This document shows, piece after piece, positions 5,067-47,478 of a stretch of DNA of 47,478 nt. Source of the stretch: Psammoneis japonica (lineage: Eukaryota); NCBI GenBank assembly GCA_008632985.1, contig QPGO01000089.1, forward strand, positions 310,001 through 357,478, read 5' to 3'. A model generated the notes under the pieces. That model was given only the letters and a program-made list of their open reading frames with translations. It did no database searches and was not told the origin of the DNA. Position 1 is the stretch's first letter, and every line of letters begins with the position of its first letter. The position numbers and the translations under genes were made by a program.

Positions 5067-5562
5067 TCCCTGAGCCAATTCAATGACTGAGATGGCCATG
5101 TGTTTGTCATGCATGCAGAGACAGCCTGAACCACAGCATCACGTAGAAGCAGACAATTCTTTTTAAACACAACAAAGCAGAAGGCACAGTCGACACGCAT
5201 TGCAGCACCCCCGCTCTGAAGCACACGACAGAAGGGAGAAAGAAATCAACTGTCATGAGTGCCGAGCTTGTTTCTGGCAATGAAACGTTTGTAATCACCC
5301 CCCCCCCCCCCCCATTTTTTACCACAATGCATTTCCAGCCGACTGAATGCCATGCCAACAGGGCCCTGCTGAGCTCCTGATGACTTTTGGGGTCACAAGC
5401 AGAGGTTGGCGTTAGTCACAGCTATCACTAAAAATCGTCCCTCGTACTTTCACGTGTGATAAAGGTGCTCCGCGAAAAGTTAGTTTCATTTTCAAATACC
5501 CGGCACCATGAACAATACATGCCTGTTCTACCGGCATTCTCGAACAAAAAGAAAATAGCTCC

Positions 5563-10700: not shown

Positions 10701-12474
10701 ACTTGGATACCATAGCTCGTAGCATTCGCCGTGAAAATGCAGAACAGGTCATCGAAGCCGCCAAGTGGGATGATGCATCAAGTGAAACGAGTCTCTATGT
10801 AGTTAAACCTTTTGCAAGGATTCCCCTTTTGTCCTCCCAGCGCTTGATGCTCCGAAAACAGGATACGCTCTTGAACCGCTCTCTCAATTTCAGAGTTGTC
10901 AGGAGCTTTTGGACTCCGAGACGGGTTTGCTTTGGATCCGGGTTTCTGAAGGGTTGAAAAAGGACGAAAAGTTGTGTGGAAGTGTCTCCGTGGATCCCGC
11001 GATGCCAAATACTTTGGTCGGAGCACGTGTCTGCAGGGGTAGGGATTGGGACGAGAGAAGGCACGGAAACAAAGATGGCGGTGACGGTAAGGAGGGGACG
11101 ATTCTCAAGGGCTACTCTGATCAAAATGTAGCCGTCAAGTGGGACAGCGCCGCCACTACATCAGGGAATCCTATTCATTATCGTGCAGGAAAGGATGGCT
11201 TTCACGACCTTTCTTTTTCGAAGACTACGCCGCCTCAGGGCTGGCTGTGCGTATCTCCCTGGGGTTGTGCCGGTCTGTCTATCGTTACCAGGATAAACGA
11301 CGCAGTCAGCTGTTGTGGTTGTGGTGAGGAATTAGAGAGCCACAAGAAGAGGAACGCGTCGAAGGCTGGAGAAGTAATTGTTGGAGACTGCGCCTTAGTC
11401 GCCGCTACACTAGAGTGCGTAACTGTGGAGTCGATTGATGCCAACGGTCGTGTTCTTTGCTCCTTTTCGTCCGTCGCACGATCTCTTGGAGCCGGCAAGA
11501 AAGAATTTTGCGGTTCTTTCTCTGTCTGGTATAAACCTGAAGATTTGGTAAAGCTGGACGATGAAGCTCACTCAGAAGATGGCGAGGAACGTAGAATACT
11601 AGATGGAAAGTCAAGAACAAGGCGTGAATTCGTGCTTCATTTCGACCGCAATGTTGTACGCGCACGAAAGGAGTGGGAGACCTCTGTATTCCGTGAGCAG
11701 CCGGATACCGGTACGTCTTGCGAATATGCGACGTGTCTTAGGGGTCACCTCCTTCATTCAAGATGTTTTCAAATGGCGTTGATGAAGGGTGGTCGCTGCC
11801 CTGAGATGGGATGCAATGAACGGCTGTGGATGCCAAAAGTTCAGCGTGTGAGAAACCATTCTGTCGACGAAATGGACTGTGGGATTGACCATCAAGCAAC
11901 TACGGAGGCCCAAGTATTGCAGGCATCTTCGCAGCTAAGACAAGTAGCAGATGCTGTGGCACTGAGAGAGCGAGAAGTCGGAAGCATTGGAAACGTAGAA
12001 GCTGCACTAGCCACATCAGGGGATCTGAGAATGTGTCCCTCGTGCTTTGCAGGACCCCTGTATAATTCTGATTGCTCCAATATGACACGCCATCATGGTG
12101 AATGCACAGCGGCCTTGTTTCAAGTAGGCATCGGGCAATGTACCCCCAATGGCATCTTTCAAGCCTCCCATGCTGAGATTGCAGCCTCGGTGATGCAACT
12201 CGCTGACACAAAATCTGTGCCGGAACGTTTACCACGGTGTCCCACGCATGCTGCGATTGTGATGTTTAACGGTTGTATGGCCTGCGGCCATCTGTTTGCA
12301 AATATGGAATGGTATGAACTACCTCCGTGGGACCCACTAGCAAAGGATCGATTGAACCTTGACAAGTCAAAAATGCAGGCCACGAGATTGCTGGCACAGC
12401 AAGTTCGACAAGAAGCGACACTTTTGGAGTTTGAACGCGACGCTCTTGTGGAACTGGAAAAGCTAGAGGAATAG
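7783..12474 (+). CDS. Large putative E3 ubiquitin ligase (UBA-like, zinc fingers, RING, Mind-bomb SH3 repeat, MIB/HERC2 domain), split by three frame breaks
   Basis: Overlapping ORFs 7783..9090, 9081..10667, 10598..10957 and 10909..12474. RING CCWC...CLGGHGMHAAC...CPTCR; Mib repeat VGDVVEIHADV...GGWNKSM...GSKGEI; MIB/HERC2 GARVCRGRDW...DGGDGKEGTI...VAVKWD...YRAGKDGFHDL. Breaks near 9000-9040, 10535 and 10835. May be a pseudogene or assembly indels. Confidence 0.75.
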
Positions 12475-13253: not shown

Positions 13254-15956
13254 ATGGTCGAACAGCAATTGGACTCTTCGTATCCACGTAAGTTGCTCGA
13301 GAATATTGCGGCGGACGTCCTAGGCGTGGGAGGGAAGAAGGATCGCGCTGGCCTCAACGGCAAGCAGTTGGGTGAATTCTGCGTGGACGAACTCACGGTA
13401 TTCCGAAACAAGTTCGGTCAGTCTCTGATATTGAGCTACGCTTTTACTTTCACGGGCGAGAATGGTGATGAGTGTGTGTTGGCAGCGGGAGGAAAGCAAA
13501 ACGAGAAGAGCAAAGCCAGGGTCTTTGTCGCGAAGGAGATAAAGAAAGACATGTTGGTTGCCGTCAAGAATGACCCTACAGCATGGGTTCCTGCCGACGA
13601 CAACGGTTATCTCAAAGCGTTAGAAAGCAGCAGCTACCAAGGAATGTTCGCCTCGTATGTTTCATCCCACGTTGCCAATTGCTCAGCTCAAGAAGCAGGA
13701 GAGTGGTTTGAAAAGGGTAAATATACGGAGGAAGTGGAAAGACATGTCGGCAATATCCGGCAAGGGGAGGAGGAAGTAAGTATACGCGCATATGAATTTG
13801 TTCAAATGACATGATACTGCACTTCTGCATGCTCATCTAACTCCTTGTTTTCTTTCCTTGAAACTTGTTCCTCATCTCTAGCGTCGTACCGCGGCATCTA
13901 CTACACAGCGGACCGTACCGGCACAGGTGCAAGAGACTCGTTCGAGTACCGACGATGAACAGTTGCCGGTGAGTACATATTGTTATATTGTACTTTAGCA
14001 TACACGCCGTATGATACTTTGTAGCATTCTATCCCATGTGTGCTGACTTATTCATTTTGTATGCCGTTTCTCAATGGAACTCTCCGCAGATTGTATCATC
14101 TTCCGAGTCGACGGCGGCACAACGCACTGGTGCTCCTTCCGTAGTGACGGGCTCCGCTTCAAATCAAACTGAGTTACTTGCGTCCTTGCTGGCTGGTGCT
14201 GGCCAAGGAACGGGGGTCAACATCACCATTAATCAATATCAAGGCGGAAACACCATTAATCAATATCAAGGCGAAAACATGCATGTCGGCGACAACATCA
14301 GCAGCGACGCCGCTCCATCCAGCACTGACGGTAGCACCGCCGCTCCATCCAGTACTGACGGTAACAACGCCGCTCCATCCAGTACTTCTGACGGTAGCAA
14401 CGCCGCTCCAACCGGCACCGACGGTGGTGACCGCACTCCTAGTTGGGTGGAACGAATCTTGGAGGGACAGGAACTCCAAGGCAAACGAATCGTGGCGGAG
14501 CAGGGTCGCCAAGGCGAACGAATCTTGGCGGAACAGGGTCGAGTCTTGGCAGAACAGGGACGCCAAGGCGAACGAATCTTGGCGGAACAGGAACGCCAAG
14601 GCGTGCAGCTAAGCGAGGTGCACAAACAGGCGACTACCAAGAAGCCGCCTGCTAGTGCCAGTCGCTACAACCATCATACCCCCGAAGATACTTCACGGTA
14701 CGAAAATAATGATGTATCCTCTCCACAGTGAGTTTCCGAGATTGTTTCTTTTTGTTATTTTGCGATTACAGTCATTAATTGTTGTGACTTACTTGTTTCT
14801 CATGTGTTGTTGGCAGGCGCAAGGAGGAGCCCTCGGTGCCCCATCGGAGTAGCGTCCGCGAAGAACCTGGCCTTCGGACGAAGCTGGAATACGACGACAA
14901 CGTCCCGGATCCGACTAACACAAACGTCGCGCAGATGGCGTTAAAATTTAAGGATAAGGTACTCGAGAAAACGATAAAGGTGAATCCCGATGTCCCGATT
15001 CAACGAGTTTTTGATCAGTACAATGAATGGCGAATCGATGTGAATTCTCCCGACAGGTTGATCTTCATATTTGAAGGAGATGAAATCAAAGACACCAGTC
15101 AAACACCAAACAAGTTACAAATGATAGACGGAGATCTTATTTGGGTGGTATTGAAGAAAGGCGTCAAGAACCACGAGATCATTGAGCTTTCAAGTGATGA
15201 GGACGATAAGGACGAAGACGCACCACCAAAGGAGGATAAGACCCCCCCTTCTTTTTGTTGCTTAGGTGACAAATGCAAGCATAATCGTCCGGGCCATGTG
15301 CCTCACGAATGCCACGCAGCGGGTTGCAAAGCGCAAATCCACCACCTTTGCGCCCTTGAAGAAAAGCTACTCGGTCAAAATGAGAATCATGCCTATTGCT
15401 GCAAGGAGCACCAGATCTCCGGTGAGCTCAAGGAGCAACAGCAGTCTTCCGAAAACAAGCCAAAGGCAGACAGTCTTGCTGATGTTATCTACGGAGCAGC
15501 AGCGGTGGCTGGAAATGACAGTCGCCTTGTCGCTGCAATGCAGCCTACGTTTGATGTAGATCCGAAGCTCCGTTCGAGTTCGAATTCTAGCACGCCCGTC
15601 AATATGGTATGTGGTTTTCTTTTCATATTTTTCTCATTCTCAAACACTACACCCCCTAATCAAATGCTTTTGTCTTTGCTGTGATTGCTTTGCTCAAGAA
15701 TACGAACGTCGATAGTGGTCCCGTCAACGAGGTATGTGTGAGCGTCGATAGAGAAGATGATGGTGCCTCCGAGGGTGACGCGAAGCCGAGTGGCGATGGC
15801 GACGCTGCTGCCACCGCAGGTTCTCGAAAGGCCCCAGCTGGCACGGCGACGATCCGATGCGAAGCGAAAGTCAAGGGCGGGCATCGTCGCTGCAAAAATA
15901 AATTCACGCCCAAATGTGAAGGGGAGAAATTCTGTGCCTTGCACACTCCCAAGTGA
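13254..15956 (+). CDS. Spliced gene encoding a SUMO-like (Rad60-SLD-type) ubiquitin-fold domain plus Cys/His zinc fingers and low-complexity repeats
   Basis: Phase-compatible exons 13254-13775, 13882-13968, 14090-14727, 14817-15606 and ~15699-15956. Donors GTAAGT, GTGAGT, GTGAGT, GTATGT; AG acceptors; ctaac/ctgac branch-like sites. LIFIFEGDEIKDTSQTPNKLQMIDGDLI is SUMO-like. FCC...C...C...C...HHLC...CCKEH and a terminal C-x10-C...C..H finger. Confidence 0.75.
14305..14600 (+). repeat. Coding tandem repeats (AAPSSTDG.. x4; RILAEQGRQG x3-4)
   Basis: Direct repeats gccgctccatccag.actgacggta and gaatcttggcggaacagg, also present in the paralog at ~46160-46460. Confidence 0.85.
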
Positions 15957-25652: not shown

Positions 25653-26670
25653 ATGTGATCTTGCACATTGGCTTGCAAGTTGACTTGCCCAAAACAATTG
25701 TGTTGCCTGCCACATGCTGCTTTCACCACCTGGCTCACATCGTTGATTTTTGCTTCTCATGCATCTCCGCTGCTCCCTGTGTTTGCAACATGAACAACAA
25801 CACCTCAGTTCACTGCAGGAAATGATTGCCCCATGCTTGGCAAACATTTCCTTCCAGCTGGTCTTCAACATCACCTCAGAACTTGTTTGCCTTGCAACCT
25901 TGCAAACTCTCCTTTTTTTCAACACATTTGTGGTGTTTCTGGCAACAAATCAACAGACTCTCATTGCACAGAGCTGCCAATGGGAGAATCTGAAGAACCC
26001 AGTGAAGCCATTGCCTCTTCTGCCTTTNACGCCCCCCCCCCCCCCCCCCCTCCTGCTGAAATGGCTGCAACAGGAGTTGGTTTGTCTCATTCCAGCACCA
26101 CCGCGCCCACTCCACAGGCTCATTTGTGACACAGCCCCCAGGCCATTGAGACCCAACATTGCTGTTGTGCAGGCACAAGAGTCATGCCCTTCTCATGACA
26201 CTGCCATTTGGCCAGGTGCCAATGATGTCTCAGAACACCAGCACCCAGACAACAGAGAAGAATTTGTTTCTGCTTCATTTGATGGTGGTGTGTCTTCTTT
26301 TGTTGCCAAGGGGCTTGCTGCTGTTGTTGATTTGGGCTCTTTTGCCACACTGGATTGAGTTGAGTCCTTTTCTCCTGACAAAGATCTCATTGTCCTTGAA
26401 GTTTGTAACAGCAAAACCATCTCCATGGCTGGCATGTTGGAAAACTGTGTTGCTCCAAGGGTGCCCCAATTGAGTGTGCAGCTGAGGAACTTCTCAGAAA
26501 TGTGCAAGAGGAGTGCTTGTGTGGTGGGTTGTCCACCAACTGACAAATCTCCTGTTCTCGCACTTTCATTTCAAAGCTTCTTGGGTCCATGTTGCTCAGC
26601 ATTGTCGCTGCATGGCAGGTGGCAAGATTGTTTTGGATGAGTCAACTTGCAAGTCAATGTGCAAGAACAT
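25653..26670. mobile_element. ~1-kb degenerate TIR element
   Basis: tcttgcacattggcttgcaagttgacttgcccaaaacaat...cctgcca (25659-25712) is inverted at 26613-26666 (tggcagg...attgttttggatgagtcaacttgcaagtcaatgtgcaaga). Confidence 0.6.
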
Positions 26671-27889: not shown

Positions 27890-28300
27890 CTTGATTTAGC
27901 CAGAAATGACTGTTTCACATCATGTTGGGAAAATTGTCCAGTGGTGCAGCAGATGTCCATCAGTGTGTCAGGGCCCACAGCATGTTTGTGCGACTGTGCG
28001 TGTTGGCCTTGTGCACCACCCACTTGCTGGAAGATGGAAGGACAAGCAAGGTTGGTTTTGTTGGTGGTTTTAGTGGCCCATTGAGTGAATCTAGATGCCA
28101 GATGGGCTCAGCCACCCACAGTCTTAGTGCAATGACGTGAGTGCAACCAACGAGATGCTTCTGGGCCTGTTGCAACTGCTGAAGTTGCAAAAAGTGAGAG
28201 TGTTTCATGGCATTGAGTTGTTCCCCTCTGATGCCACATCACAGCTGCACCAGCTCAACTTTTAGAGCACAGAAGACAATCCCTGATGCTCCAGATTTCT
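27890..28300 (-). repeat. Putative 3' LTR of the copia element
   Basis: Lies just downstream of RNase H, preceded on the minus strand by a purine run (ttcaagggggaccaag). Segments recur at 41421-41750 (gagcacagaagacaatccctgatgctccagatttc; gttggccttgtgcac). Confidence 0.45.
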
Positions 28301-30531
28301 CTTGGTCCCCCTTGAAATGTTCCCAGCAGACTTGACAGGGACAATTTGATCTGGTGCTGACCCAGTGACTCCCAAACAACAACCACAATCTCTGAGCATG
28401 GTGCAAACCCTCGCTGAGGAAGAAAATTGCTTGCTCCATGCATCGAACTCAACACGTGAACTTGTCTGTCAGAAAATTCTGTCTGACAGACGACGTGACC
28501 ATTTGTGAACAGATCACTCAGGTTTGTCTCCGTTCCTTCCTTTGCAATCCCAACAGCCCCTGCAGCAACAGCTTTGCAGTTGAGGTGATGCACAATGGAG
28601 TGATGCTTCTTCTTGAGTGCAGACTCAGGAAGAGAGCAGTTGTTGTTGCAGATGGCCTTGTTGTCAAAAAGAAAATCGTCGGCCCTTTGATCAGCACACC
28701 AAACATTTGGAGTTTGTGTCACAGACCCTCTGCAATCTCAGCGGCATTCTTGAGTGCAACAATCTCAGCTCTGAATGTGCTGGCCTTCACAGCATCCTGA
28801 CGTTTTGAGCACCACATGACAGGTGCCCAATTGACAAACATCAGGACACCTGCATGGCTGCAATGATTGGCAACATTGCCAGCATGGCTGCCATCCACAA
28901 AACAATGTGTTGACACTGCACCACCTCAAGCAGGCAGTGCATTGGTTGGGATGGCTTCCATTGCATCTTGGCAGAAGTCACACCAGCCACATTTTGTGAA
29001 TCACGACTCAAATGTCATTGGATGTGAAACAGGTCAAATGCAACTTGGCACTTTGGAACCCATTTAAGATGTGCAAAGACATGCAGCACCTGTTCCAGAT
29101 GACCAATGCAAGGCAGCACAAGGTGGGCAGACATCAACGAAACTTCCAAATGTGTGTCCACTCTGCTGAGTTTTGTGGCCCAAACCAACACACCCATCAA
29201 TGCTTGGCAGCAGTTCAGTCCTTTGGCATCCAACTCACCAGTCATGTCCAACATGGGTTTGTGCCCACTGCCCAGCAGGGTTGTTGCCTCACCAGCAGGC
29301 AAATGTTTCCCTTCCTCCTTGCCAAGTCCATCCTCAATGTTCTGAACAGTGGCTTTGCAGTGCTTTTCTGCAGAAGTTGCCCAACAGGTGGTCCCGTTGG
29401 TCAGAGTCATCTTTGACAGTGTGGTGCTGAGGCAAGAATCTGGCGCAGCTGCCCTGTCATCTTTGAGCTTGAACTTGGACCTGATGCCATCCATTGTGTC
29501 TTCATGGGTTCATGACTGATCAACAGCACATTGTCAACACAAACCAGAATGTGTTTGCAGCACTCAAATCCACCGGGTTTCACTGCAGGTCTCATCCATG
29601 CATCCGGATCGGCCTTGCTTGGTTTGCACCCTGGATCACACAGCTTTTCTGCCAGAAATGCTCTGAGTGCTGCTTCAGAACTCTTCAATCTGCAAAGAGC
29701 CCCAACCACAATCATGATGCAGCTTTCATCCTTGCCAAATTTGGAACCTGCATGGGTCCAAATCTTCTTCCTGCAAGGGGCAGCAAGGTGAGCATTCTGG
29801 ATGTCACACACAAAAACTTGCAAGCCGTTGAGTGTGGCAAGCATGAGTGCAATTCTTGCCAAATCCCAAGAGATGACAGAAGAGGAGGTGATGTGTGCAG
29901 GGGGTGCAGCAGTGTGGCTTCCTGCTGCCATGCGAGCTTTGCGGCGGAAGTTTTCTCCCATCTTGATGTCAAAAATCACATGGCACTTCACTTCCTGGAA
30001 CCCAGGTGCCATGTCATCAAGCTCCCCTTGTGCTTTTCAAACACAACCTGTGCATTCTTCATCTGCATGCAAGTGGGCATCCCACCAGAGGGTGTTGCTG
30101 TTTGCATGATCAATCTGAATTGCCTCCTTGACGCTCTTTGGAAACCAAGTGCCAAGCTCATGTGTCCAAAGCCAGCACTTTGACTTGACCTTTGCAATGG
30201 AATGCTTGTGGGTTCTCATGACATGAGGGACCCACCAAGCAAATGCTGCCTCTTTTGAGATCCTGCATCAAATGGCAAACTTGGCAACTTGCACAGGAAA
30301 ACTCTCTTTGGCACCCTTCAAGTCGATCCAAGTTGTGCTTCGATCCTTCTGTTGGAGCAAAAATTCCCATCCTTTGGCAGACTTGCGCCTCTTCTGAATG
30401 CCCTGCTCAGTCTCAAAGAACACAGATTCAGGAATGTCCCCATTTGTGCAGCAATCTGCTGTCTCGTCAAATGGGACATGCTGACTCCTGTCCTTGTCAA
30501 TCTGTGCAAATGTGCTCATGATGGCAGCGGA

Positions 30532-30927
30532 GACGCGTTCCAGACGCAGGTGGGAATCCGTGTGACATTGGGCCCGTAGACTTCTACGTGCGAGCTCCGT
30601 ATTAAAATTATACGGTAATTAAAATGTCAATGATCGCCAACAGAAAATGAGGCAATTTTGCGAACGCACAAACTCGCACATGATTGAAGTACATCATTTT
30701 TTACTTAGCCAGTTACATTCTTCAGACATTGAAGAATTTAACTGGCGCATTGTTGTTTCTATAAATTTGTTATATAAAACGTCTGGGGCTTCGCAAAACA
30801 GCGAGTCTGGACAATTTTTTTTAAATGTCACACGTAGAAATCTACGTACGAAACATACGACGGATGATAAAAATTATTGTTGTCACACGTCAGCACTACG
30901 AGCTCCCACCTAGGGCTGGAACGCGTC
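30532..30927. mobile_element. ~396-bp MITE, GAC...GTC termini, 4-bp TSD CGGA (young, unmutated copy inserted in copia pol)
   Basis: gacgcgttccagacgcaggtggga ... tcccacctagggctggaacgcgtc. CGGA at 30528-30531 and 30928-30931. TA- and CG-rich interior. Confidence 0.92.
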
Positions 30928-31683
30928 CGGAGTTGGCAGAGAGCGCTGTGTGGTGCCTGGTGCCCATCAGGGTGCTCTGCCTCACACATCCTTGTGTCAA
31001 GCCTGTCAGAATGCTGCTGGCATCTCTCAACCTCTTCATGACACAAGCAAACTTGGGGCCATCATCATCTCTTGTGAGAGCCACTTCCATGTTCAGACAC
31101 CCCCAGTCAGCTGCCTCCAGCGAGGCTTCCTTGTCCTTCTTCTCATTGTCGTCATTGGCTGCCTCCTCTGAGGACATGACATGATCACACTCATCAAGGA
31201 ATTCATTGTTGCACCCAAGGCAGTCTTTCCAGTCCTCAGGGCTGATCTTGCGGTCCTCGTTGTGTCAGGGAAATCTTGTTCCCTTGACTGGCACTTGATC
31301 TCCTCATCACAGCTGTCGAACTTTGCCTTGTTCTCTTGTGCAGTGGCTTCTAGATTGGTGACCCATTGAACGGAGGTCCTCAAAATGACACTTCCTGTCT
31401 GTGTTGAAATGCAGTGCGACACATGAGACTCCCTGTTCTGTGAGGTGCGCCAAGCCACCTGCCAAGCTTCTTGTCGCCAAGACCCGTGTTCTCCCTGTGC
31501 CAGACCCAATCACAAAATCCAAAGTCATGGTGCTCTGAGATGCCCACAGTCTCCCCAAGGATGTTCTCCAGCCTTGGTCCAGCATCTGAATGATGTGCTC
31601 TTGGGAACGTGCAAGACATGGTTTCACAGGCCCGTGCAAATCAGCAGTCCCACAGTCGCCGTGGTGCTTGCTTCTTGACCATG

Positions 31684-34600
31684 GACGGGTTCCAGTCCCA
31701 GGAACACTGACGAAAATGTCGCCAACACGGAAAACTGAGACATTTTGCACTGTCTTGCGACAATCAAGAAACAATGCATTCTCTCCAGCTCGGCAGATCC
31801 ACATGCTTGACTCCGCAGAAAAATCATTTGTCGCCAGTTTGATGAGACATTTCCAAAAATGTCGCCAAAATTGCCAGTGGCACTCAAGCAACTGGTTCAC
31901 ACAACATGTCATGCTTTTAACACATGTGTGAGTTTTAGCGAAGGAAGACACATGGAGACAACGTGAGACAAAGTGAGACAATTTGAGACAAAGTGAGACA
32001 ACTTGAGACAAAGTGAGACAAATTGAGACAACTTGAGACAAAGTGAGACAAAGTGAGACAAATTGAGACAAAGTGAGACAACGTGAGACAAAGTGAGACA
32101 TTGTTGGCGATTGGCGATCAATGCAATGGCCAATGGTCGTGCCACACTCCTCGCTGTGAGCACTGAGCTGGCAGCCACCTTGCTGCTCTGCTCTCTGGCA
32201 GAGTGGCTGCTGTTTTGCTCCAGCTGCTATCTGCCACTGGAGCAGAAAGTGGCTAGAGTGGCAGTGGCAGTTGGCACAGCAGCGGGCAGGCAGTGGGACT
32301 GGCACTGCACCGCACCGACCGGGCGGCAGTCGCAGTCGTACTGCCGCTTGTTCATCGTTGCTCAAATGACATGAAAAACATCTGCACACAAATTAATGAT
32401 TGTCTTGCTTTGTCTCAATTTGTCTCACTTTGTCTCAATTTGTCTCACTTTGTCTCAAGTTGTCTCACTTTGTCTCACTTTGTCTCAATTTGTCTCACTT
32501 TGTCTCGCGTTGTCTCCATGTGTCTTCCTTTGCTAAAACATCACACATGCACCAATTTGCATTGCATTGCATTTTTTCATTGTCGGAAATGTCTCATTGA
32601 ACTGGCGACAAATGATTGTTCCAGCATGTGTGCAGATCTACCGAGCTGAAGAGAATGCATTGTTTCTTGATTGTCGCAAGACAATAAAAAATGTCTCAGT
32701 TTTCCGTTTTGGCGACATTTTCGTCAGTGTTCCAGGTGGGAGTTTTTGTGACATTTGCCCCACAGAATTCTGCGTGCGAGCTCTGTAGTTCGCACTCTGA
32801 TTGATGCATGTGTTCATCTTCGACATAAAACAAACGGCCAAGTTTGTAGCACATGTGTCTCTGTTTGCACCAGTGTTTCCCGAATGTGCATTTTGGGTCG
32901 GACCAAATTGGCATTTTGGTCGAACCAAAATGCTTTTGTCGACCAAATTGCCGGACCGACCAAATCAATTTGGACGACCAAATTGACATTTGCGAAATCT
33001 CGACCAAATTGATTTCAGGCACATTTCTGCACAAACAACACCAACGCAGCTTCTACGAAATTTTTGCACAGCATGCCAACATGCGCGTTTTCCAACAGAA
33101 TCTTCCCGTGAAAGCACGCCAAATTCCCCCGACCAAAATGACATTTTCGGGGAAACAAAATCATTTTGGTTGCAAGCATCAAATTTGTCAACAAATTCGG
33201 TTTGACCAAAATGCCCAACAGGAATCATTCGAAAATGTCGCGTGTGGGTCATCTCGCACACGTGTGCGCGGTTGTTAAACTGTGCAGGCATGCGCATGTG
33301 TGCGAGGTGTGAGTGGAACATGCGCAGAATTGCTGCTGAGTGAGTTGACATGCAGTGGATTTTCCGCCGGTGCACAACCTGCGTGGTCTGCACAAAAGAT
33401 GAGTTTGTGCTGGTCTCTGAAGCTTTCGCATGTCACAAAATTGTGTTGTGCTTTTAACAGACACATGCAGCAATTCAAAAATCTTGCAGAACACCCCGAA
33501 AGAACTCTGGAATCTGCACAAAAAAATTTCCATTTAACGGTGCGAACAGAGTTGTCGCGAAGCGCTTCTCAAAACAACTTCAGATTGAACACAGTGAAAC
33601 ATCGACTGTTGGCAAAACAGAGTCACCATCGGACAAATAGATCCCGTGTTCTTCGCGCGCAAACAACGCGACAACGCACAACAACGCCATGGCGAGAAAC
33701 GCAAATGCCACCCCCCCATCTACAAGCTGGGAATGCGAGATGCTGTTGAAGTGGTTGGACAATGTGCATGCGCTGCATTCATGGGTCAAGTTGGGTTTCT
33801 TCTCACTGCTTGTTGTTGTGTCATTTTACAACGTTTTGACCCACACCGTGTTCTTTGCTTTGTTGCTTTCTGCTCGCGCGCCACCAACAGCTCTTCCTGC
33901 AGGGTGTGGCCAGTTGCACGGCTGCATTGAACCCAAACGTGCGTGACCAACTGGCCCCACCCTGGCTGACTCATGACTGACATTTTGCACAAGGAAAAAC
34001 ACAAAATCGTGTGGAAATGTGCACAATGTCATGCGAGAGAGTGATTGGAGCTAACAACTTTTCGGGAACTGAGCTGAAATGCCATCTGGTTGACGGCATT
34101 GGCCTTCACCATGTGAATCAAAATGCCGTCAATCAGATGGCATTTCAATTGATTTCCCGAGAAGTTGACATTCGCACTCAGATGGATGGACAGACTGACA
34201 TTAATTGTTTTCAGCACTCTCCTGCAAGCAAAAAAAGGTCTGTCCTCTGCCTTTTGGCATCTGTGTAAAAGTCGATTTTGTTTCCAAAATCGATGGTTTT
34301 TTCACCATGTGACGCTTCCCACGTCTTCTGACATTGTCAATTGACATGCCCCCCCATGCCTGCATTTGCCAGGTTCACGGTTCTGAACACCATTGCTGCT
34401 GGTGCAAGAAGGGCCTTTTTTTGCTCCAAGAGGACAGACCGGTCATCAGCAGAGTTCTGCGTGGCAATGTGCCGAGAAATTTACACAGATTTTTTTTGCA
34501 TCCGACGTCAAACGCTTTGCCATTGTCTCTCACAACGGCAGCATGGTGAGTCCACAATGCACACTCTTGTCGAACAACATGGGCCCACAAGCTCTCATTC

Positions 34601-35184: not shown

Positions 35185-35645
35185 CAGTCTTTCCAGTCCT
35201 CGGGGCTGATCTTACGGTCCTCGTTGTCAGGGAAATCTTGTTCCCTTGACTGGTGCTTGATCTCCTCATCACAGCTGTCGAACTTTGCCTTGTTCTCTTG
35301 TGCAGTGGCTTCTAGATTGGTGGCCCATTGAACGGAGGTCCTCAAAATGACACTTCCTGTCTGTGTTGAAATGCAGTGCGACACATGAGACTCCCTGTTC
35401 TGTGAGGTGCGCCAAGCCACCTGCCAAGCTTCTTGTCGCCAAGACCCGTGTTCTCCCTGTGCCAGACCGAATCATAAAATCCAAAGTCATGGTGCTCTGA
35501 GATGCCCACAGTCTCCCCAAGGATGTTCTCCAGCCTTGGCCCAGCATCTGAATGGTGTGCTCTTGGGAACGTGCAAGACATGGTTTCACAGGCCCGTGCA
35601 AATCAGCAGTCCCACAGTCGCCGTGGTGCTTGCTTCTTGACCATG

Positions 35646-38600
35646 GACGGGTTCCAGTCCCAGGAACACTGACGAAAATGTCGCCAACATGGAAAACTGA
35701 GACATTTTGTGTTGTCTTGCGACAATCAAGAAACAATGCATTCTCTCTGGCTCGGCAGATCCACATGCTTGACTCCGTAGAAAAATCATTTGTTGCCAGT
35801 TTGATGAGACATTTCCAAAAATGTTGCCAAAATCGCCAGTGGCACTTCAGCAACTAGTTTGCACAACATGCCATGCTTTTAACACATGTGTGAGTTTTGG
35901 CAAAGGAAGACACATGGAGACAACGTGAGACAAAGTGAGACAACTTGAGACAAAGTGAGACAAAGTGAGACAACTTGAGACAAAGTGAGACAAAGTGAGG
36001 CAAATTGAGACAAAGTGAGACAACGTGAGACAAAGTGAGACAAAGTGAGACATCGTTGGCGATTGGCGATCAATGCAATGGCCAATGGTCGTGCCACACT
36101 CCTCACTGCGAGCACTGAGCTGGCAGCCACCTTGCTGCTCTACTCTCTGGCAGAGTGGCCACTGTTTTGCTCTGGCTGCTCTCTGCTGCCAGAGCAGAAA
36201 GTGGCCAGAGCAGCAGCGGCAGTTGGCACAGCAGTGGGCAGGCAGCAGGACTGGCACTGCACCGCACCGACAGGGCGGCAGTCGCAGTCGTGCTGCTGCT
36301 TGTTCATCGTTGCTCAAACAATGTAAAAAACATCTGCACACAAACCAATGATTGTCTCACTTTGTCTCAATTTGTCTCACTTTGTCTCAAGTTGTCTCAC
36401 TTTGTCTCACGTTGTCTCCATGTGTCTTCCTTCGCTAAAACGTTGCACATGCATCAATTTGCATTGCATTGCATCAACTGGTCACTCGAGTGCCACTGGC
36501 GATTTTGGCGACATTGTCGGAAATGTCTCATTGAACTGGCGACAAACAATTGTTCCAGCATGTGTGCAGATCTGCCAAGCCAAAGAGAATGCATTGTTTC
36601 TTGATTGTCGCAAGACAACAAAAAATGTCTCAGTTTTCCGTTTTGGTGACATTTTCGTCAGTGTTCCAGGTGGGACTTTTTGTGACATTTGCTGCCCCGC
36701 AGAATTCCACGTGCGAGCTCTGTAGTTCGCACTCTGATTGATGGACACATTTGTCTTTGACACAAAACAAACGGCCAAGTTTGCAGCACATGTGTCTCTG
36801 TTTGCACTGGTGTTTCCTGAGTGTGCATTTTGGTCGGACCAAATTGGCATTTTGGTCGAACCAAAATGCTTTTGTCGACCAAATTGCCGGACCGACCAAA
36901 TCAATTTGGTTGACCAAATTGACATTTGCGAAATCTTGACCACATTGATTTCAGGCACATTTCTGCACAAACAACACCAACGCAGCTTCTACGAAATTTG
37001 CGTGGCGTGTCGACATGCATGTTTTCCAATGGAATCTTCCCGCGAAAACACGCCAAATTCCCCCAACCAAAATGACGTTTTCGGGAAACAAAATCATTTT
37101 GGTTGCAAGCATCAAATTTGTCAACAAATTCGGTTTGACCAAAATGCCCAACAGGAATCATTCGAAAATGTCGCGTGTGGGTCATCTCGCGCACGTGTGC
37201 ACGGTTGTCAGACTGTGCAGGCGTGCGCATGTGTGCGAGGTGTGAGTGGAACATGCGCAGAATTGCTGCTGAGTGAGTTGACATGCGGTGGATTTTCCGC
37301 CGGTGCACAACCTGCATGGTCTGCACAAAACTTTTCTATGCAAGCACCCACTGGCAACCCCTGCGTGTGTTTCTGCGTGTGCTCTCGCACTGATGTCGCC
37401 CTTTTCAGATGGCATTTCGCTGAGTCCCCTGTCAACCTTTTGGCCCCTTCTGCCATTGGTGCACCCTTTTATTTCCATGATGCACAACAATTTTCAGTGG
37501 AAAACGACTGGCGTCGACACTTTGTGGTTCGTGTGCTTGTTGTCTTGTTTGGCAATTTTTTGCGGATTCAGTGCGATTTCTACACAGAATCCAGTGCAAG
37601 TTCTATGCGCTTCAGAAATGTGTGCCGACAGTCATTGCGTCTCCGATGCGATCAACTTCCATCCTTGCCTGAAAGCCCCCAACAATTTCTTTTGCTCCTG
37701 CTGGCCACTCAAGTTCTTCACCTCATGTGGTGAAAGTGCTGTCCCTGTTGTGGCGCCTGCGAGTGTTCGCATGGACAAACCATCGGCATCATCTGACGAC
37801 CGTCCATTTGCTGCGTGGATCGGCTTTTCTGTGCAAGATTCAGTGTCAATTCTACGTGAGAACAATGTTTCTTCCGATGACCTTCTCGTCACATCACCAA
37901 GACTTCCTGTTTCATCCTTGCAAGTCACAAACATCCCCTTTTCCACTTGCTGGCCCACCAAGATCACTGTTCCGAGCAGTGAACTGCACATTGTTGTTCT
38001 GGTTCATGCAATTGTGAAATTCAATCAGTCTTTGTTGAAGACAAGATTCTCCCTCAGAGGCAAAGATTTTCTCTCAGAGCATGCGCTGACTTTGAATTCT
38101 CTGCTTGGCTTGATTGTCCTTTGCTGTGGTGGTTTGGGTGCCTTGCATCCTCTCTGAAAGAAAGCAATGATCTCATTCTGGTGCAATTTTTCCTTGACCT
38201 TTTATCACTGGTGCGCGTCGCTGCAAAGCGGCGCGTTGACCGACTGATCGCACGACATTCTGCCGCACTCTCCTCGCAGGGTGCACTGGAAGTGTGGGTT
38301 GGCCGGCGCCGGTGTTGCTGGGCAAAGGTGTGACAGCACTTAAAATTGGGTTTTGGTTTTTTTTTCTGCGTGGTCTGCACAAAAGATAAATTTGTGTTGG
38401 TCTCTGAAGCTCTCACATGTCACAAAATTGTGTTGTGCTTTTAACAGACACACGCAGCAATTCAAAAATCTTGCAGAACACCCCAAAAGAACTCTGGAAT
38501 CTGCACAAAAAAATTTCCATTTAACGGTGCAAACAGAGTTGTCGCGAAGTGCTTCTCAAAACAACTTCAGATTGAACACAGTGAAACATCGACTGTTGGC

Positions 38601-39532
38601 AAAACAGAGTCACCATCGGACAAATGGATCCCGTGTTCTTCACGCGCAAACAACGCGACAACGCACAACAACGCCATGGCCAGAAACGCAAACGCCGTCC
38701 CCTCATCTACAAGCTGGGAATGCAAGATGCTGTTGAAGTGGTTGGACAATGTGCATGCGCTGCATTCATGGGTCAAGTTGGGTTTCTTCTCGCTGCTTGT
38801 TGTTGTGTCATTTTACAGCGTTTTGACCCGCGCCGTGTTCTTTGCTTTGTTGCTTCTGCTCACGCGCCACCAACAGCTCTTCCTGCAGGGTGTGGCCAGC
38901 TGCACGGCTGCATCGAACCCAAACGTGCGTGACCAACTGGCCCCACCCCGGCTGACTCACAATTGACATTTTGCACAAGGAAAAACACAAAATCGTGTGG
39001 AAATGTGCGCAATGTCATACGAGAGAGTGATTGGAGCTAACAACTTTTCGGGAACTGAATTGAAATGCCATCTGGTTGACGGCATTGGCCTTCACCATGT
39101 GAATCAAAATGCCGTCAATCAGATGGCATTTCAATTGATTTCCTGAGAAGTTGACATTCGCACACGGACAGATGGACAGACTGACATCAATTGTTTTTAG
39201 CACTCTCCTGCACAATTTCTGCGTGATGACTCTCAGGACCCGAATGATTCCCATTGAATTTGGTCCGACCAAAATGCACATTCGGGAAACACTGCTCAAA
39301 GTTTTTGACAATGCGCCTGCCCTGCGCCATTCTTAAGACACTCGAGAATGGCGCAGAAGAAAAAAATGTCAAAAGTTGTTGAATGGATCGCCTGACAATT
39401 GCACCACAAAATGATGCAAAATTTCTCCAAAATCACGTAGAAATGTACGTGCGCGACATACGACGCGATTCAAAAAACCATCGATGTCACAGTTCAGCAG
39501 TGGAGGTCCCACCTGGAGACCTGGAACGCGCC
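35646..39532. mobile_element. Long (~2.9 kb without the foldback) GAC-terminus DNA transposon with 4-bp TSD CATG, inserted in copia integrase
   Basis: Left end gacgggttccagtcccagg|tgggactttttgtgaca, right end tgtcaca...ggtcccacctggagacctggaacgcgcc. CATG at 35642-35645 and 39533-39536. Removing it rejoins integrase KWFCIM-VKKQAPRRLWD. Confidence 0.88.
35664..36666. mobile_element. Foldback-type element, copy 2
   Basis: Same TIRs and 10-bp arrays (35917-36052 and 36352-36420) as 31702..32732. Confidence 0.9.
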
Positions 39533-41420
39533 CATGATGCAAAACCACTTGCATTGAACCTCACGCACAACTCCCTCTACAGGATTCTGGTTGTGCTTGT
39601 CAGGTTCAATGACATGGCAATCAATGCCCTCCTTGCACACCATCTTCATGAACTCCATGCCTGGCTTTGTTTGCTCCTTGGATCCATCTGTCAGGAGTTT
39701 CTCAGGCATGCCAAATTCTTGGCAAAATGCCTTGAGAGCTTTGCCAGCCTTGCTCTTCTTGTCCATGGGAAGATTGCAGCAAAATGGTGTTTGTTCACAA
39801 AGATCTGGGCACATCAATTGCCTTCCAATGAAATCACCTTGCCATTGGCTGTGTTGGTTGCCTGCTCACCTTGCAACCTTGGTTTTGTGAACATCCAATC
39901 CACTCAATGATGCCAACCCAGCATGGGCATCAGTGCTGATCTCACAAGCCTTTGCGTGGTCTTCTTGAGTGTGCTCGCTGCTTGCTTGAGTCCAGTGCAC
40001 CATCGTTTGCTTGAGTCAGCAGCTGTTGCATCACTGTGTCTCTCTTTAGACATGAACATCTTCTGGAGCACTGAGTCTTTAGTTCCATCACCAATCATTT
40101 CTGCAGCAGAGATCTGCACTTCCTTTGACTCTACATTGACCACCACTGTGAGCCCAGATTGGACTTGATCGGCTCCATGGACGAATCTCCCATTGCAACA
40201 GTGCCTGGACTGAGGGTTGCTGTGGACAGGATTGGCTTTGAACTCATGTGTCAGATTGGTGTGAACCATTGCAATTGATTGAACTGGCTCCATTTCCTCC
40301 TCTGCAGATTGTCAAGTGCCAATGGACTTGAGCTCAATGTTCTGTGGATCCCAAGGTTGTTGGGAGGTCATCTGGATCTTGGGGAATTCGCGCAACTCCT
40401 GCTCTGCAGGAGTGCAAGTTGCTGCAACGATGTTGGTCCCCATGGCCTCAAGTGGCATCATGAATGATTTGTCCTCCACAAGGACACACAATGACGAGTC
40501 AGAGCAGGGATTGTCCTGAACCTTGATGCCAAAGTGCTGCAATTGGTTTTGGTTGACCAATGGGTGCTCCATGGAATCAGGCACCCACAATCCCTCATGG
40601 AAGACCAGAACAAACATTGCTCCCGATGTTGGTGATGTCCACGCCATGGCCACTGAAACTGTTGTGGGACACTGTTGATGGAATGGCACCCCTTGTTGAA
40701 AGGTGACACATTGCACTCTTATCCAGAACAACCCAAGAGGGCAAAGTTTTGACCAAAAACAGTGGTGTCAGCCTGCGAATCCATTTCAAGGCATCCATGC
40801 TGTGCCTTGTTCATGTCGCGGATGTGAGTCGTGATTCATGTGTCACACACCATGCTGTTGAGATGTGCAGTGTCAAGGTGACAACTTCACAGATGCATTT
40901 GCTGCAGCTGTGTGGATTGTGCTTGTCTGATTGATGTGGCTGTCCCCCACCCAAATGTGGCAACCAACCACAACACAAAGTTCATGATGCTGCAGAGCAG
41001 GGTCCAGCTCAGCAGTCAATTCTTCTTTGCTCTGCACCTTTTGCTGTGACCACTGAATGCATCCCCGGCATTGTTTCCATCTTGACCATCATCCCTTGAA
41101 TCATCATTGCCAGAGTCGGTGCTGGCGCTGGTGTTCAAGCAGAGATTTTACGGTTTGCTTCTTCAAGCTGTGACGACAGCTTCCAACTCTTCTTTTTGAG
41201 CACCTTGACAGATGCACAAAGGCATTTGGGATTTCCAGGTTGTTTGGAAACACCCAGATGCACACGCTTGTTGACAACCTTCTGTTTGTCCTCCTCACTC
41301 AACTGGCACCAATCCTTGTGGCACCCAGTGTCAATGGACCCGTCTTCATTGCAGATGGTTGTGCCACCAACTCTTCCTCCTCCAGAGGCAACTGCGGCAA
41401 TGGCGCGGTGATGTGATGCG

Positions 41421-41750
41421 TGCAACTGCCAAAGTCACAACAAGTGATCATGTTTTGTGGCAGTGAGTCATTTTCCTCCAATGCCATGTCACAGTTCCAC
41501 CACTTCAACATTTGGAGCACAGAAGACAATCCCTGATGCTCCAGATTTCACTTGCCATCAGCATCAAGCCCATCAAAAACTTTGGTTGTGCCAGAAATGG
41601 AAGCGGCTTGAGCAAAAACCCGCTTCAGTCAGTGCATTGTTTGCAACCATGTTGGCCTTGTGCACACCACCCATTGCAGCATTGCTGGAAGACAGAAGGA
41701 CAAGCAATGTCAGTTTTGTTGTCAGCCCTTTTAAAAACAAAACTTGACAA
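41421..41750 (-). repeat. LTR-like segments homologous to 27890-28300, in permuted order
   Basis: 41421-41550 matches 28171-28300, and ~41585-41740 matches ~27891-28075. Confidence 0.5.
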
Positions 41751-43419: not shown

Positions 43420-44572
43420 AAGGTTGTGTGGGAGGCACTGTGTCCATGACACCGACCCGCGCGCACTCTCAGGCATCTTGGCCAAATCAATGGAGCTGGG
43501 ATCTCTCACTCTTGTCTCTTGCTTGAGAGCCTCTGGAGAATGGTGTTGCAAACAGTGATGACTTGGACGGCCCTGCTTCTTCTGTGCAAAGCGCTGACCA
43601 AGACATGCTGTGCTTGTGTGCGGAGCTTGTTGCTGTCAAGACGGCTCGCGAAAGTGTCACGAAGCAACTTGATCAAGTTGACCTCAGGAAATCTTTGCTG
43701 ATCTTGTCATGTTTTTTGAGGCTGGCAACAACTCTGACAACGCATTGTCCACTCTGTCTTCTCTGGATGTCCTCAGGGCCGCTCATCTTGTTAAGTTGGG
43801 GAACGAGGCACTGACTGACGTGCGACCAGAAGATCTGCAGGCTGGTCACTTGGATGCCACAGCTCACAGCATTCACCACAAAAATGCAGAACAGGTCATT
43901 GAAGCTGCCAAGTGGGATGACGAATCAAGCAAAACGAGTCTCCATGCAGCCAGCCTTTTGCAAAGATTTCCCTTTTGTCCTTCCCAACCCTTGGTGCTCC
44001 GAAAACAGGATGCGCTCTTGAACCACTCTCTCAGTTTCAGAGCTGTCAGGAGACTCTGGACTCTGAGATGGGTTTGCATTGGATCTGGGTTTCTCAAGGG
44101 TTCAAAAAGGATGAAGAGTTCTGTGGAACTGTCTCTGTGGATCCCGCGATACCAAGCGCATTGGTTGGAGCATGTGTCTGCAGGGGCAGGGCTTGGGACA
44201 AAAGGAGGCATGGAAACAACAATGGCTCTGTGACATCAAGGAGGAGACAGATCAGGAGGCAGCCATCAAGTGGGGCAGCACTGTGACTGCATCAGGGCAT
44301 CCTGTTCATTGTTGTCATGCTGCAGGAAAATGTGGCTTTCACAGCCTTTCTTTTTCTGAGACTGCGCCGCTTCAGGGCTGGCTGTGCACATCTCCCTGGG
44401 TTGGTGCCGGGCTGTCGATCATTGCCAGGGCAAATGAATCATTGTGCTGTTGTGGTTGTGGTGAGGAACTGGAGAGCCAGCCAAAAGAGAAGAGGAGCGC
44501 ATCGAAGTCTGGAGAGAAGTGGTTGTCTGAGACTGCGCCTTGGTTGCCACCACGCTGGAGAGCGAAACTGTG
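43420..44572 (+). pseudogene. Hypermutated partial duplicate of the RING/MIB-HERC2 gene (homologous to ~10290-11428)
   Basis: Colinear alignment (aatcaatggagctgggatctctcactcttgtctctt; gcggagcttgttgctgtcaagacggctcgcgaaagtgtcacgaagc). Differences are dominated by TA->TG/CA and CG->TG/CA. Confidence 0.92.
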
Positions 44573-45092: not shown

Positions 45093-47478
45093 ATGGTCAA
45101 ACGAGGACTTATCTCTTCCTCTTCACGTGAGGACCTCGACAAGCTCGCAAAGGACTTGTTACTCGTGGAAAACCGGTATGATCCAGTTCACACTGGCCTC
45201 GACGCAAAGCAGTTGAGGCGGGCTTTCAAATTACCGGTACGCAAGCGCACGGAACTCCCAGCATCGGTCGCTACGCCTCTGATCTTGAGGCACGCTTTTG
45301 TTTACACGGACGAGAATGGCGATGAGCGTATGGTTACAAAGAAAGCAACAAAAAGTGGTGTTAAAACGGAGAAGGTGTTCGTCGAGGACGGGGATTACGA
45401 AGACTTGATGAATGCCGTTATGAATGACCCCGCGGAATGGGTGCCTCGCGACGATCAAGGCAATGTCGCGGGATTAGAAAACAATTACGAAAGAGAGTTC
45501 GGCTCATATATTGAAACTCACGTTGCCAACATCCAAGCTCAAGTTGCAGAAAAGTGGTTGAACGGTGAGCGCAAGAAGGAAGTGAAAAGACTGGTCGGCA
45601 TCATCAAGGACAGGGAGAAGGAAGTAAGTATACGCGCATATGAATTTGTTTAAATGGCATGACACTGTATGTTTCTATGCTTTTCTAACTTGTTGTTTTC
45701 TTTCCTTGCAACTTGTTCCTCATCTCTATCGTCGTACCGCGGCATCTACTACACAGCGGACCGTACCGGCACGGGTGCAAGAGACTCGTTCGAGTACCGA
45801 CGATGAACAGTTGCCGGTGAGTACATATTGTTATATTGTACTTTAGCATGCACGCCGTGTGATACTTTGTGGCGTTCTATCCACTTGTGTGCTGACTTAT
45901 TCATTTTGTATTCCGTTTCTAAATTGAACTCTCCGCAGATTGTATCATCTTCCGAGTCGACGGCGGTACCACGCACTGGTCGCACTGGTGCTCCTTCCGT
46001 AGCTACGGGCGCCGTTCCAACTGAAGTTGTTGCGTCCGTTCTGGCTGGTGCTGCTGGCCAAGGAACGGGGGTCAACATCACCATTAATCAATATCAAGGC
46101 GAAAACACCATTAATCAATATCAAGGCGAAAACATGCATGTCGGCGACAACATCAGCAGCGACGCCGCTCCAACCAGCACTGACGGTCGCAACGCCGCTC
46201 CATCCAGTACTGACGGTAGCAGCGCCGCTCCATCCAGTACTTCTGACGGTAGCAACGCCGCTCCAACCAGCACCGACGGTGGTGACCGCACTCCTAGTTG
46301 GGTGGAACGAATCTTGGAGGGACAGGAACTCCAAGGCAAACGAATCGTGGCGGAACAGGGTCGCCAAGGCGAACGAATCTTGGCGGAACAGGGTCGAGTC
46401 TTGGCAGAACAGGGACGCCGAGGCGAACGAATCTTGGCGGAACAGGAACGCCAAGGCGTGCAGCTAAGCGAGGTGCACAAACAGGCGACTACCAAGAAGC
46501 CGCCTGCTAGTGCCAGTCGCTACAACCATCATACCCCCGAAGATACTTCGCGGTACCAAAATGATGTATCCTCTCCACAGTAAGTTTCCGAGATTGTTTC
46601 TTTTTGTCACTTTGCGATTACAGTCATTAATTGTTGTGACTTGCTTGTTTCTCATGTGTTGTTGGCAGGCGCAAGGAGGAGCCCTCGGTGCCCCATCAAA
46701 GCAGCGTCCGCGAAGAACCGGCCCCTCGGACGAAGCTGGAATACGACGAGATTACGTTGGTCTTTCAGGAGAAGGAGATGGAAACCCCTATCGCGCTTCA
46801 TCCCGATGACACATTTCAAGGCGTTTTTCACCGGTACAATAAAGGGCGAATTGATGTTAAGGTGGACAAGTTCATCTTCAAGTATGACGGACACGAAATC
46901 GAACCAACCGAAACACCAAGAAGCTTAGACATGGAAGATGGATTCGTCATTGATGTGGAATTGAAGAAAGGCGTCTGCAAAGACGCGCCCATTGAGCTTC
47001 TCGACTCCTCCAGCGACGAGAATGAAGATGCCCCACCAATGGAGGACAAGGCCCTCCCCACTTTTTGTTGCTTGCGTGAGAACTGCAAGCATCCGTTTCT
47101 GGGGCACGAACCTCACGAGTGCCACGAAGAGGGTTGCACCCTGCAAATCCACCACCTTTGTGCCAGTGAGAAAAACCTAACTAGCAAAGATCATGACCTG
47201 GAAGTGTATTGCTGCATGGAGCACAAGCTCTCCGCGGAGCGCAAGAAGGAAGAGCGCAAGGAGCAACAACGCGAGAAGCAAGAGCTCTCTTGCGAAAACA
47301 AACCAAAGGCAGACAGTCCTGCTGATTTTGTCTCTGGAGCAACGGCGGTGTCTGGAAATGATAGACGCCTTGTCGTTACAGCGCCGCCTAAGTTTGACGT
47401 AGATTCGAAGCCCACTTCGAGTTCGAAGGGTAGAACGCTCGTCGATATGGTATGTGGTTTTCTTTTCATATTTTCTCT
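45093..47478 (+). CDS. Paralog of the SUMO-like-domain/zinc-finger gene (runs off the window; intron-1 acceptor altered)
   Basis: Exons 45093-45623, ~45730-45816, 45939-46579 and 46669-47449. Exon 4 reads FIFKYDGHEIEPTETPRSLDMEDGFVIDV (SUMO-like), then FCCLRENC...IHHLC. The acceptor ctctag (13876-13881) is ctctat here (45724-45729). Confidence 0.7.

Follow-up and report, generated by a model that had tools for sequence, protein, structure and literature searches.

Tyrosine Loss in a copia Element of the Diatom Psammoneis japonica Is a By-product of TpA Hypermutation

A fragmented copia element and its tyrosine codons

The window analyzed here is a stretch of 47,478 nucleotides (G000:C88:310001-357478) from the Psammoneis japonica assembly, which comprises 91.4 Mb in 597 contigs. 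An RVT_2-type reverse transcriptase (RT) core on the minus strand identifies its central feature as a CoDi-like Ty1/copia retrotransposon (Table 1). At E ≤ 1e-20 the core has 313 RVT_2-type homologs; among the best 120 listed, most matches show 56–63% identity and belong to RVT_2 polyproteins of about 1400 residues. The outside protein P0104 served as reference. It finds the window copy by tblastn with E 2e-162, and the two are colinear over P0104 residues 51–1420. Of the profiles proposed for comparison in a preliminary description of this locus, RVT_2 (PF07727) does match, with a sub-cut-off score in the window and E 5.5e-19 on P0104, and no Pfam rve or RNase H match was obtained even on P0104. 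The regions before and after RT are presumably integrase and RNase H, respectively.

The polyprotein lies in pieces (40823–39506, 31683–30929, and 30520–28083). Other copies run across both junctions, and in copies L009, L010, and L017 the 5′ part is contiguous with the rest. An LTR-like repeat flanks the polyprotein on both sides; a second match is not colinear. The MITE that interrupts pol is bounded by a 4-bp target duplication (CGGA), L010 and L017 cover the empty site, and a read-set contig from one run, possibly the assembly source, spans the copia–MITE junction. A further repeat at 31955–33397, 35185–37330, and 38366–39212 contains inverted 10-bp tandem arrays and is present in several copies, with a TpA-normal relative at L087:7704–9749. 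Between 18438 and 20376, 87-bp inverted repeat arms (98%) enclose 181-bp tandem repeats, and the left arm forms the left edge of a block from which TpA is erased. TpA is also near zero from about 2500 to 5500 and normal between about 5500 and 18438. An ankyrin-like host gene (2556–4769) with internal 300-bp tandem repeats adjoins an old MITE and keeps a long open frame though it is TpA-erased beyond its first codons. A ureide permease at 744–2009 has 101 matches, the named ones being from the diatoms Amphora, Seminavis, Epithemia, and Ditylum (38–50% identity), which points to a pennate, probably raphid, diatom host. At 26029–26050 one N precedes a long C run, a possible local assembly weakness.

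Table 1. Features of the window, with positions counted from its first nucleotide
Feature	Position	Strand	Remarks
RT core frame, CoDi-like Ty1/copia	29407–30036	-	209 aa, no Tyr; PF07727 E 0.0065, below curated cut-off
YVDD site, read as CVDN	29530–29541	-	GTT TGT GTT GAC AAT here; most sisters GTT TAY GTN GAY GAY
RT to C-terminal part of pol	28083–30520	-	frame change near 29497
pol segment upstream of RT	30929–31683	-	holds RRLWDC; partly duplicated at 35185–35645
5′ part of polyprotein	39506–40823	-	P0104 residues 51–496; ~7.8 kb of other repeats separate it from the remainder
GFECCKHILVCVDNVLLISH motif	29512–29571	-	inside 29400–30050
PGCKPSKADPD	29602–29634	-	inside 29400–30050
ALCRLKSS	29677–29700	-	inside 29400–30050
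DIQNAHL	29785–29805	-	inside 29400–30050
PVMWCSKRQ	28797–28823	-	outside 29400–30050
RRLWDC	31644–31661	-	outside 29400–30050; second copy at 35606–35623
LTR-like direct repeat	28171–28304		134 bp, 81% identical to 41421–41554
LTR-like repeat, second copy	41421–41554		upstream of polyprotein
Young non-coding MITE	30532–30927		396 bp, terminal inverted repeats; inserted in pol; 27 TpA and 26 CpG kept
Older MITE, sister subfamily	4668–5066		4 TpA left vs 33 in natural copy L068
TpA-erased block, sharp edges	18438–44630		TpA 161 vs 1707 expected; CpG 710 vs 1567
Host-gene copy (MIB_HERC2 region)	43424–44572	+	in erased block; 35/36 aligned TpA lost
Donor of host-gene copy	10281–11427	+	TpA normal (38)
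Control duplicate of 13423–15631	45277–47474	+	both copies TpA-normal; 55/88 shared TpA retained

The preliminary description had located within 29400–30050 a copia RT destroyed by systematic recoding of tyrosine to cysteine or histidine. The minus strand indeed carries the six motifs that it listed, although two of them fall beyond that interval (Table 1). To score the fate of tyrosine we defined conserved columns from P0104 and 119 further outside homologs. Of 28 such columns 26 align in the window, where Cys stands in 12, His in 6, Phe in 5, Ser in 2, and Tyr in 1; four of the five Phe recur in sister copies and are family-level. With the five Phe and the one Tyr omitted, Cys or His accounts for 18 of 20 replacements against a null of 2 in 8 (p 1.6e-9). 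The direction TAY>TGY/CAY is systematic, as had been claimed, and not part of a random mix of replacements. The eight conserved columns within 29400–30050 read five Cys, one His, one Ser, one Phe, and no Tyr. The position in WYSK carries little weight, since His is native there in 26 of the 120 outside proteins. Other aromatic residues of the window copy are largely in place relative to P0104 (Trp in 20 of 22 conserved columns, Phe in 26 of 34). In 24 sister loci, chosen for likeness to the eroded copy, Tyr occupies only 53 of 540 cells (Cys 231, His 168), while Trp is retained in 384 of 406. The 120 CoDi-type relatives, unlike the Tyr-poor window copy, contain 2.7–4.6% Tyr.

These replacements have their origin at the level of DNA, where every Tyr codon contains TpA. 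The 651 nucleotides of 29400–30050 contain no TpA (40.7 expected) and eight CpG (40.5 expected). Over 28083–30520, 4 TpA remain of 157 expected and Tyr codons are absent from all three minus-strand frames. The change from YVDD to CVDN is composite: Y>C is a TpA>TpG change (TGT), as the preliminary reading implied, while D>N is a separate CpG>CpA change across the codon junction GAC|GAY that leaves AAT. Loss of the second Asp would be expected to abolish RT activity. That this copy is dead is borne out, and it also carries the frame change near 29497 and the MITE insertion. Logan contigs from the one public run found to hold this stretch, possibly the assembly source, agree with the assembly without any difference over 29086–29492, 29614–29957, 29999–30198, and 30274–30558; the CVDN codons fall outside all eight listed contig pieces, with no difference listed there, and no RNA run holding the stretch was among those listed.

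TpA loss in sister copies, MITEs, and a host-gene duplicate

A search with an intact outside query gave 1651 candidates, of which 33 were scored; in the 30 best loci the TpA observed/expected ratio (o/e) is 0.06–0.22 throughout, with 0–11 Tyr and frames of up to 1512 aa. Such long Tyr-free open frames in dead copies follow from the loss of TAA and TAG stops. The absence of any TpA-normal copia copy is true of these 30 loci but not in general: of eight further loci, one has a normal TpA content (o/e 0.70, two stops listed) and another is half eroded (0.49). TpA-normal repeat copies include L258 and, for another repeat, L087.

Comparison of copies dates the loss. The closest copia pair shows differences at 12 of 2082 background positions, 40 TG/CA swaps, and 33 sites with TpA in one copy and TG or CA in the other; hence erasure came later than insertion. 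Assuming a TpA-normal start, we estimate that TpA is erased roughly 200 times faster than the background rate. Sister copies at 0.6–2.5% background divergence carry Cys in one and His in the other at shared sites, with 16–83 swaps per pair (60 of 78 pairs listed), and no Cys-bearing master was seen among the copia copies compared. Measured against one TpA-normal natural copy, five copia copies have converted 398 of 539 TpA (191 to TG, 207 to CA). In coding pairs AA>AG is also raised (123/1687, vs 39/1782 for GA), which is probably synonymous divergence.

Catalytic motifs are not the target, since few sites are hit less often than the YVDD Tyr, which is retained in 18 of the 24 sister copies. 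By family, it is kept in eight of nine copies of family A (three as TAT), six of six of B, and five of seven of D, and lost in 13 of 14 of C. In families A, B, and D this Tyr sits in a TNTACG context, and family C lacks the CG. Selection for YVDD was considered as the cause of survival and rejected because non-catalytic Tyr in the TNTACG context survive too; 45 of the 53 surviving Tyr cells in the 24 sister loci follow TT. The flank model described below does not separate family B (6/6) from family C (1/14), so selection on YVDD or search bias may still contribute to its retention.

The same erasure affects host DNA. The host-gene copy near the right edge of the block derives from a TpA-normal donor in the same window, which gives the direction of mutation without recourse to any retroelement sequence. 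Its 35 lost TpA became TG (18), CA (13), CG (1), or something else (3). In addition, 44 of 76 CpG became TG or CA, and A>G elsewhere amounts to 6–9%. In this pair TpA has become TG, CA, or CG at 32 of 36 sites; the control duplicate has 20 such sites among 88 (p 6e-12). Within the segmental duplication 10281–15631/43424–47474, erasure is confined to the 1.2 kb that adjoin the repeat block and ends sharply near 44630, which suggests limited spreading.

Non-coding MITEs provide an age control. In 24 older copies of subfamily 2, picked by likeness to an eroded copy and compared with L068, conversion has reached 590 of 792 TpA cells (CA 322, TG 265, CG 3), whereas transversions at TpA number only 4 of 792 and CpG is retained in 363 of 408 cells. 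Other A>G changes are equally scarce after G (6/1006) and after A (13/1800; p 0.81). In these copies TpA is lost about 12-fold faster than CpG. For the young MITE we examined 24 other copies, the most similar of 1363 first-look candidates: all sit in TpA-erased flanks, and each holds 27–32 TpA. This confinement may reflect insertion preference or selection. Including the window's own copy, singleton transitions among these 25 young MITEs fall on 8 of 62 TpA positions and on none of 52 CpG positions, while A outside TpA is hit at 3 of 171 positions (p 0.0014 against TpA). Across MITE copies the loss is graded from 2 to 33 remaining TpA. Since MITEs and a host-gene copy are affected like the copia element, there is no recoding at the protein level, contrary to the preliminary description, and the loss of tyrosine is a by-product of DNA-level TpA>TpG/CpA hypermutation.

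Genomic extent and flanking-base rule

To estimate the extent of erasure, we sampled the genome in 38 stretches of 10 kb at fixed offsets (40 sought, not length-weighted), which afforded 379 bins of 1 kb after one was dropped for N. The distribution of TpA o/e is bimodal, with 189 of the 379 bins below 0.2. In these erased bins TpA stands at 0.10 of its normal frequency, and CpG o/e is 0.41 compared with 0.97 in normal bins. The two losses correlate over bins (Spearman 0.75): of 127 CpG-poor bins only two have a TpA o/e above 0.4, and 25 erased bins hold CpG above 0.8. Depletion depends on the following base, TAT being 35 times and TAC 13 times rarer, and TAA and TAG 5 and 7 times, within a range of 5–8.

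We fitted a flank model with per-strand rates twice, once to 784 MITE cells and once to 704 cells drawn from 11 further pairs, five of which have one shared reference. Relative to A at +1, the rates are 4.7 (MITE) and 3.9 (other pairs) for C, 4.8 and 3.2 for T, and 1.7 and 1.4 for G. T at -2 slows conversion by factors of 0.32 and 0.37, T at -1 by 0.51 and 0.43, and an adjoining 3′ CG by 0.6 and 0.8. Read along the strand that carries the changed A, TAY is thus converted about four times faster than TAA, and tetramer survival ranges from 0.004 (ATAT) to 0.43 (TTAA). A hot spot at TACG, the UACG context of TadA, was hinted at by strand counts and discarded, as the rate model and the survivor lists show CG-adjacent sites to be average or slow. 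Changes are not coordinated by strand (275/563, null 264 ± 9) and only weakly patchy (p 0.03), and distance to CpG does not predict TpA survival.

Candidate causes and known systems

It is highly probable that these observations reflect a targeted DNA-level process that turns TpA into TpG or CpA (A:T>G:C) in a repeat-rich compartment. The comparisons show that TpA is mutated after the DNA has landed there, on both strands, by many independent single events, and to near saturation; retrotransposons, MITEs, and the host-gene copy are all targets, with the donor gene spared. A separate and slower CpG decay in the same compartment produced the D>N change of CVDN. The affected compartment may be 5mC-silenced chromatin, because CpG decays there and because silencing in Phaeodactylum is DNMT5-dependent according to the available part of PMC9998398. 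As to chemistry, a tRNA-deaminase-type enzyme (ADAT2/TadA or ADAT1 fold) could convert adenine to hypoxanthine in DNA, and replication would fix G. The effect is to inactivate elements for good by missense changes, an analogue of RIP that runs in the opposite direction. We give adenine deamination in silenced DNA about an even chance of being the cause.

The deaminase set of this genome looks ordinary: one ADAT2, one TadA-like gene whose D108 site carries Asp, and two A_deamin genes. The latter (L245/L248, G000:C40; L246/L247, G000:C79) are of the ADAT1/ADAR type with intact HAE and PCG motifs, and no RNA-binding domain was seen on either. ADAT2 carries Asn at the site equivalent to TadA D108, a residue to which the Bigelowiella natans preprint discussed below draws attention, but so do all four eukaryotic ADAT2/Tad2 chains aligned, and this residue is therefore non-diagnostic. 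A MafB19-deam search of the genome returned nothing beyond these deaminase genes, an AAG/MPG search gave no candidate, and an atlas search with one A_deamin exon gave no usable match. C5-methylase (PF00145) has 27 matches in the genome. Several C5-methyltransferase gene copies (L128–L130 and L134; G000:C301, C297) lie in TpA-erased DNA (o/e 0.07–0.11), some with stops, and may be carried by a mobile element. A single frame at L118:313–1785 (G000:C79) fuses a CDA-fold deaminase to DIOX_N and a 2OG-Fe(II) oxygenase and probably serves nucleobase salvage.

A lesion on thymine would be an alternative chemistry for the same DNA-level process. Oxidation of T at RTA to 5-hydroxymethyl- or 5-formyluracil would lead to mispairing with G; 5-formyluracil does form such mispairs. 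In a duplex T>C at RTA is A>G at TAY, and sequence cannot tell the two apart. The available part of PMC11572971 also ties a dinoflagellate 5hmU enzyme to transposon silencing. A Tet_JBP search of the genome found 0 candidates, in an assembly that may be incomplete, and we consider this route unlikely.

Error-prone patch repair of the polymerase-eta type, set off by T:G mismatches from 5mC deamination, would explain why TpA and CpG losses co-occur. Pol eta prefers WA/TA, which are hotspots of such repair, and AA>AG is raised in the coding pairs. For somatic hypermutation, the accessible portion of PMC7884765 places Pol eta downstream of deamination. However, AA does not exceed GA in the non-coding MITEs, transversions at TpA are rare there, and TpA is lost far faster than CpG with no relation of survival to CpG distance. 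Moreover, CpG-poor CoDi-like loci elsewhere (L141, L210) retain TpA. These points make such repair a still less likely source than a thymine lesion.

An active copia family adapted to Cys and His would be compatible with several copies bearing long open frames and with the YVDD Tyr retained in families A, B, and D. Where one sister copy has Cys, however, another at 0.6–2.5% background divergence often has His, the open frames follow from the loss of TAA and TAG, and non-catalytic TNTACG Tyr are retained as well; this reading, which would need near-identical insertions with a common Cys/His pattern, none of which was seen among the copies compared, is very improbable. Even less credence can be given to a sequencing or assembly artefact such as a miscalled modified base. 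A single run, possibly the assembly source, holds the stretch, but the young MITE retains its TpA within the erased block, the loss is graded between copies, read-set contigs match without difference in the listed pieces, and outside proteins bear the same signature. ADAR-like A-to-I editing of element transcripts, fixed by reverse transcription, is the least plausible of all: ADAR favors U before the edited A (per the available parts of bioRxiv 10.64898/2026.01.13.699255) and the genome has two A_deamin genes, but the changes extend to a DNA element that codes for nothing and to the copy of a host gene, both strands contribute about equally and without coordination, and sister copies came to differ at individual sites once inserted.

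The nearest precedent is Bigelowiella natans. As reported in the parts of the preprint available (Mettrop et al., bioRxiv 10.64898/2026.01.13.699255), TpA-only A>G/T>C changes were measured de novo in two viral inserts at about 6e-7, and 124 TpA-poor clusters were described, with ADAT2 proposed as the enzyme. As in the NCLDV/virophage inserts of that rhizarian, changes here are TpA>TpG/CpA only, on both strands, in foreign or silent DNA, and the A>G/T>C changes are confined to TpA with both TpG and CpA as outcomes (265/322 in MITEs, 191/207 in copia copies). Targeting is likewise regional and directed at foreign or repeated DNA, judging from the bimodal bins, the sharp edges, and the 30 of 30 best copia loci. 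The B. natans clusters include transposon domains, and in the available text ADAT2 is proposed, not shown. There the targets are viral regions, with Rho only 0.45 for the large one; the elevated de novo rate is confined to some lines and goes with transcriptional silence, and the parts consulted contain neither a flank rule nor a link to CpG. Here the host is a diatom, about half of the sampled bins fall below 0.2, and the targets comprise LTR retrotransposons, MITEs, and the copy of a host gene, with a flank rule and coupled CpG decay; our rate is an estimate from the comparison of copies.

Ascomycete RIP resembles this process as a permanent, dinucleotide-specific transition hypermutation of repeats in sharp domains. 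RIP runs in the opposite direction, C>T, and creates TpA and stops, whereas TpA here falls to a tenth of normal. RIP is triggered by homology, mutates both copies, acts before meiosis, and involves the RID methyltransferase. In this window, by contrast, one copy of the host-gene duplicate, the donor at 10281–11427, is untouched, and both copies of the 13423/45277 duplicate, which lies outside the block, are TpA-normal, as are the repeat copies in L087 and L258. Diatom DNMT4 may group with RID, according to the part of PMC9998398 available. The strand-coordinated edits that ADAR or APOBEC would leave by way of RNA or cDNA were not found. TadA/ADAT2 and TadA-8e likewise have a 5′ T/U before the changed A. 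For TadA-8e the motif is UA, and native TadA depends on UACG in RNA (PMC12296453, available portion). Unlike with native TadA, TACG is not above other TAC here and the substrate is genomic DNA; TAY fits loosely. As in methylated diatom transposons, CpG>TpG/CpA occurs in the same compartment and explains D>N, but 5mCpG decay is unable to remove TpA and is slower than the TpA loss seen here.

Outside this genome, all 80 CoDi-like metagenome loci scored, of 323 relatives, have a TpA o/e of 0.44–1.05, CpG-poor ones included, and show no erasure; metagenome assemblies favor young collapsed copies. A viral contig collection yielded no relative. Three of 269 outside RT proteins carry the signature, with 11 of 12 (P0338), 11 of 13 (P0327), and 6 of 12 (P0279) conserved Tyr replaced by Cys or His. 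P0338 and P0327 share at most 47% and 50% identity with this genome, judging from roughly 110 scored among some 1000 candidates for each, and the best match of P0279 among 182 stretches of this genome reaches 55% identity. P0279 also resembles a TpA-normal metagenome family at 88.6% identity, and 8 of the 38 differences between them are Tyr>Cys/His. Judged by sequence, all three probably stem from other organisms.

The window feature conforms to the B. natans pattern in mutation spectrum, use of both strands, and regional targeting, in another lineage, with other targets, and to a far greater extent; it is RIP-like in outcome and is not RIP. Our literature search, which left most subscription papers outside its reach, found no diatom report of TpA hypermutation, and so far as it goes the process is in print only in the one B. 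natans preprint. Repeat-directed hypermutation has been known mainly as C>T (RIP, APOBEC, 5mC decay), and an A:T>G:C change at TpA, close to saturation in half of the eukaryotic DNA sampled here, runs counter to the usual AT bias. New with the diatom are the scale, the classes of target, a rule for flanking bases, and young and old MITEs that serve as an internal clock, all of which make the question of the enzyme testable. Among practical consequences, dead elements with erased stops appear intact, their Tyr-free proteins drop below Pfam cut-offs, and divergence-based dating of repeats is distorted; a CVDN-type motif is one footprint among many of the TpA process. Tentatively, and at somewhat less than even chances, we propose that diatoms and chlorarachniophytes share a DNA adenine deaminase pathway that acts on TpA of both strands at 5mC-silenced chromatin, that has rewritten about half of this genome, and that inactivates retrotransposons by missense changes before they reach 1% background divergence. 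If true, the pathway would defend genomes across SAR and act as a natural adenine base editor that prefers TAY.
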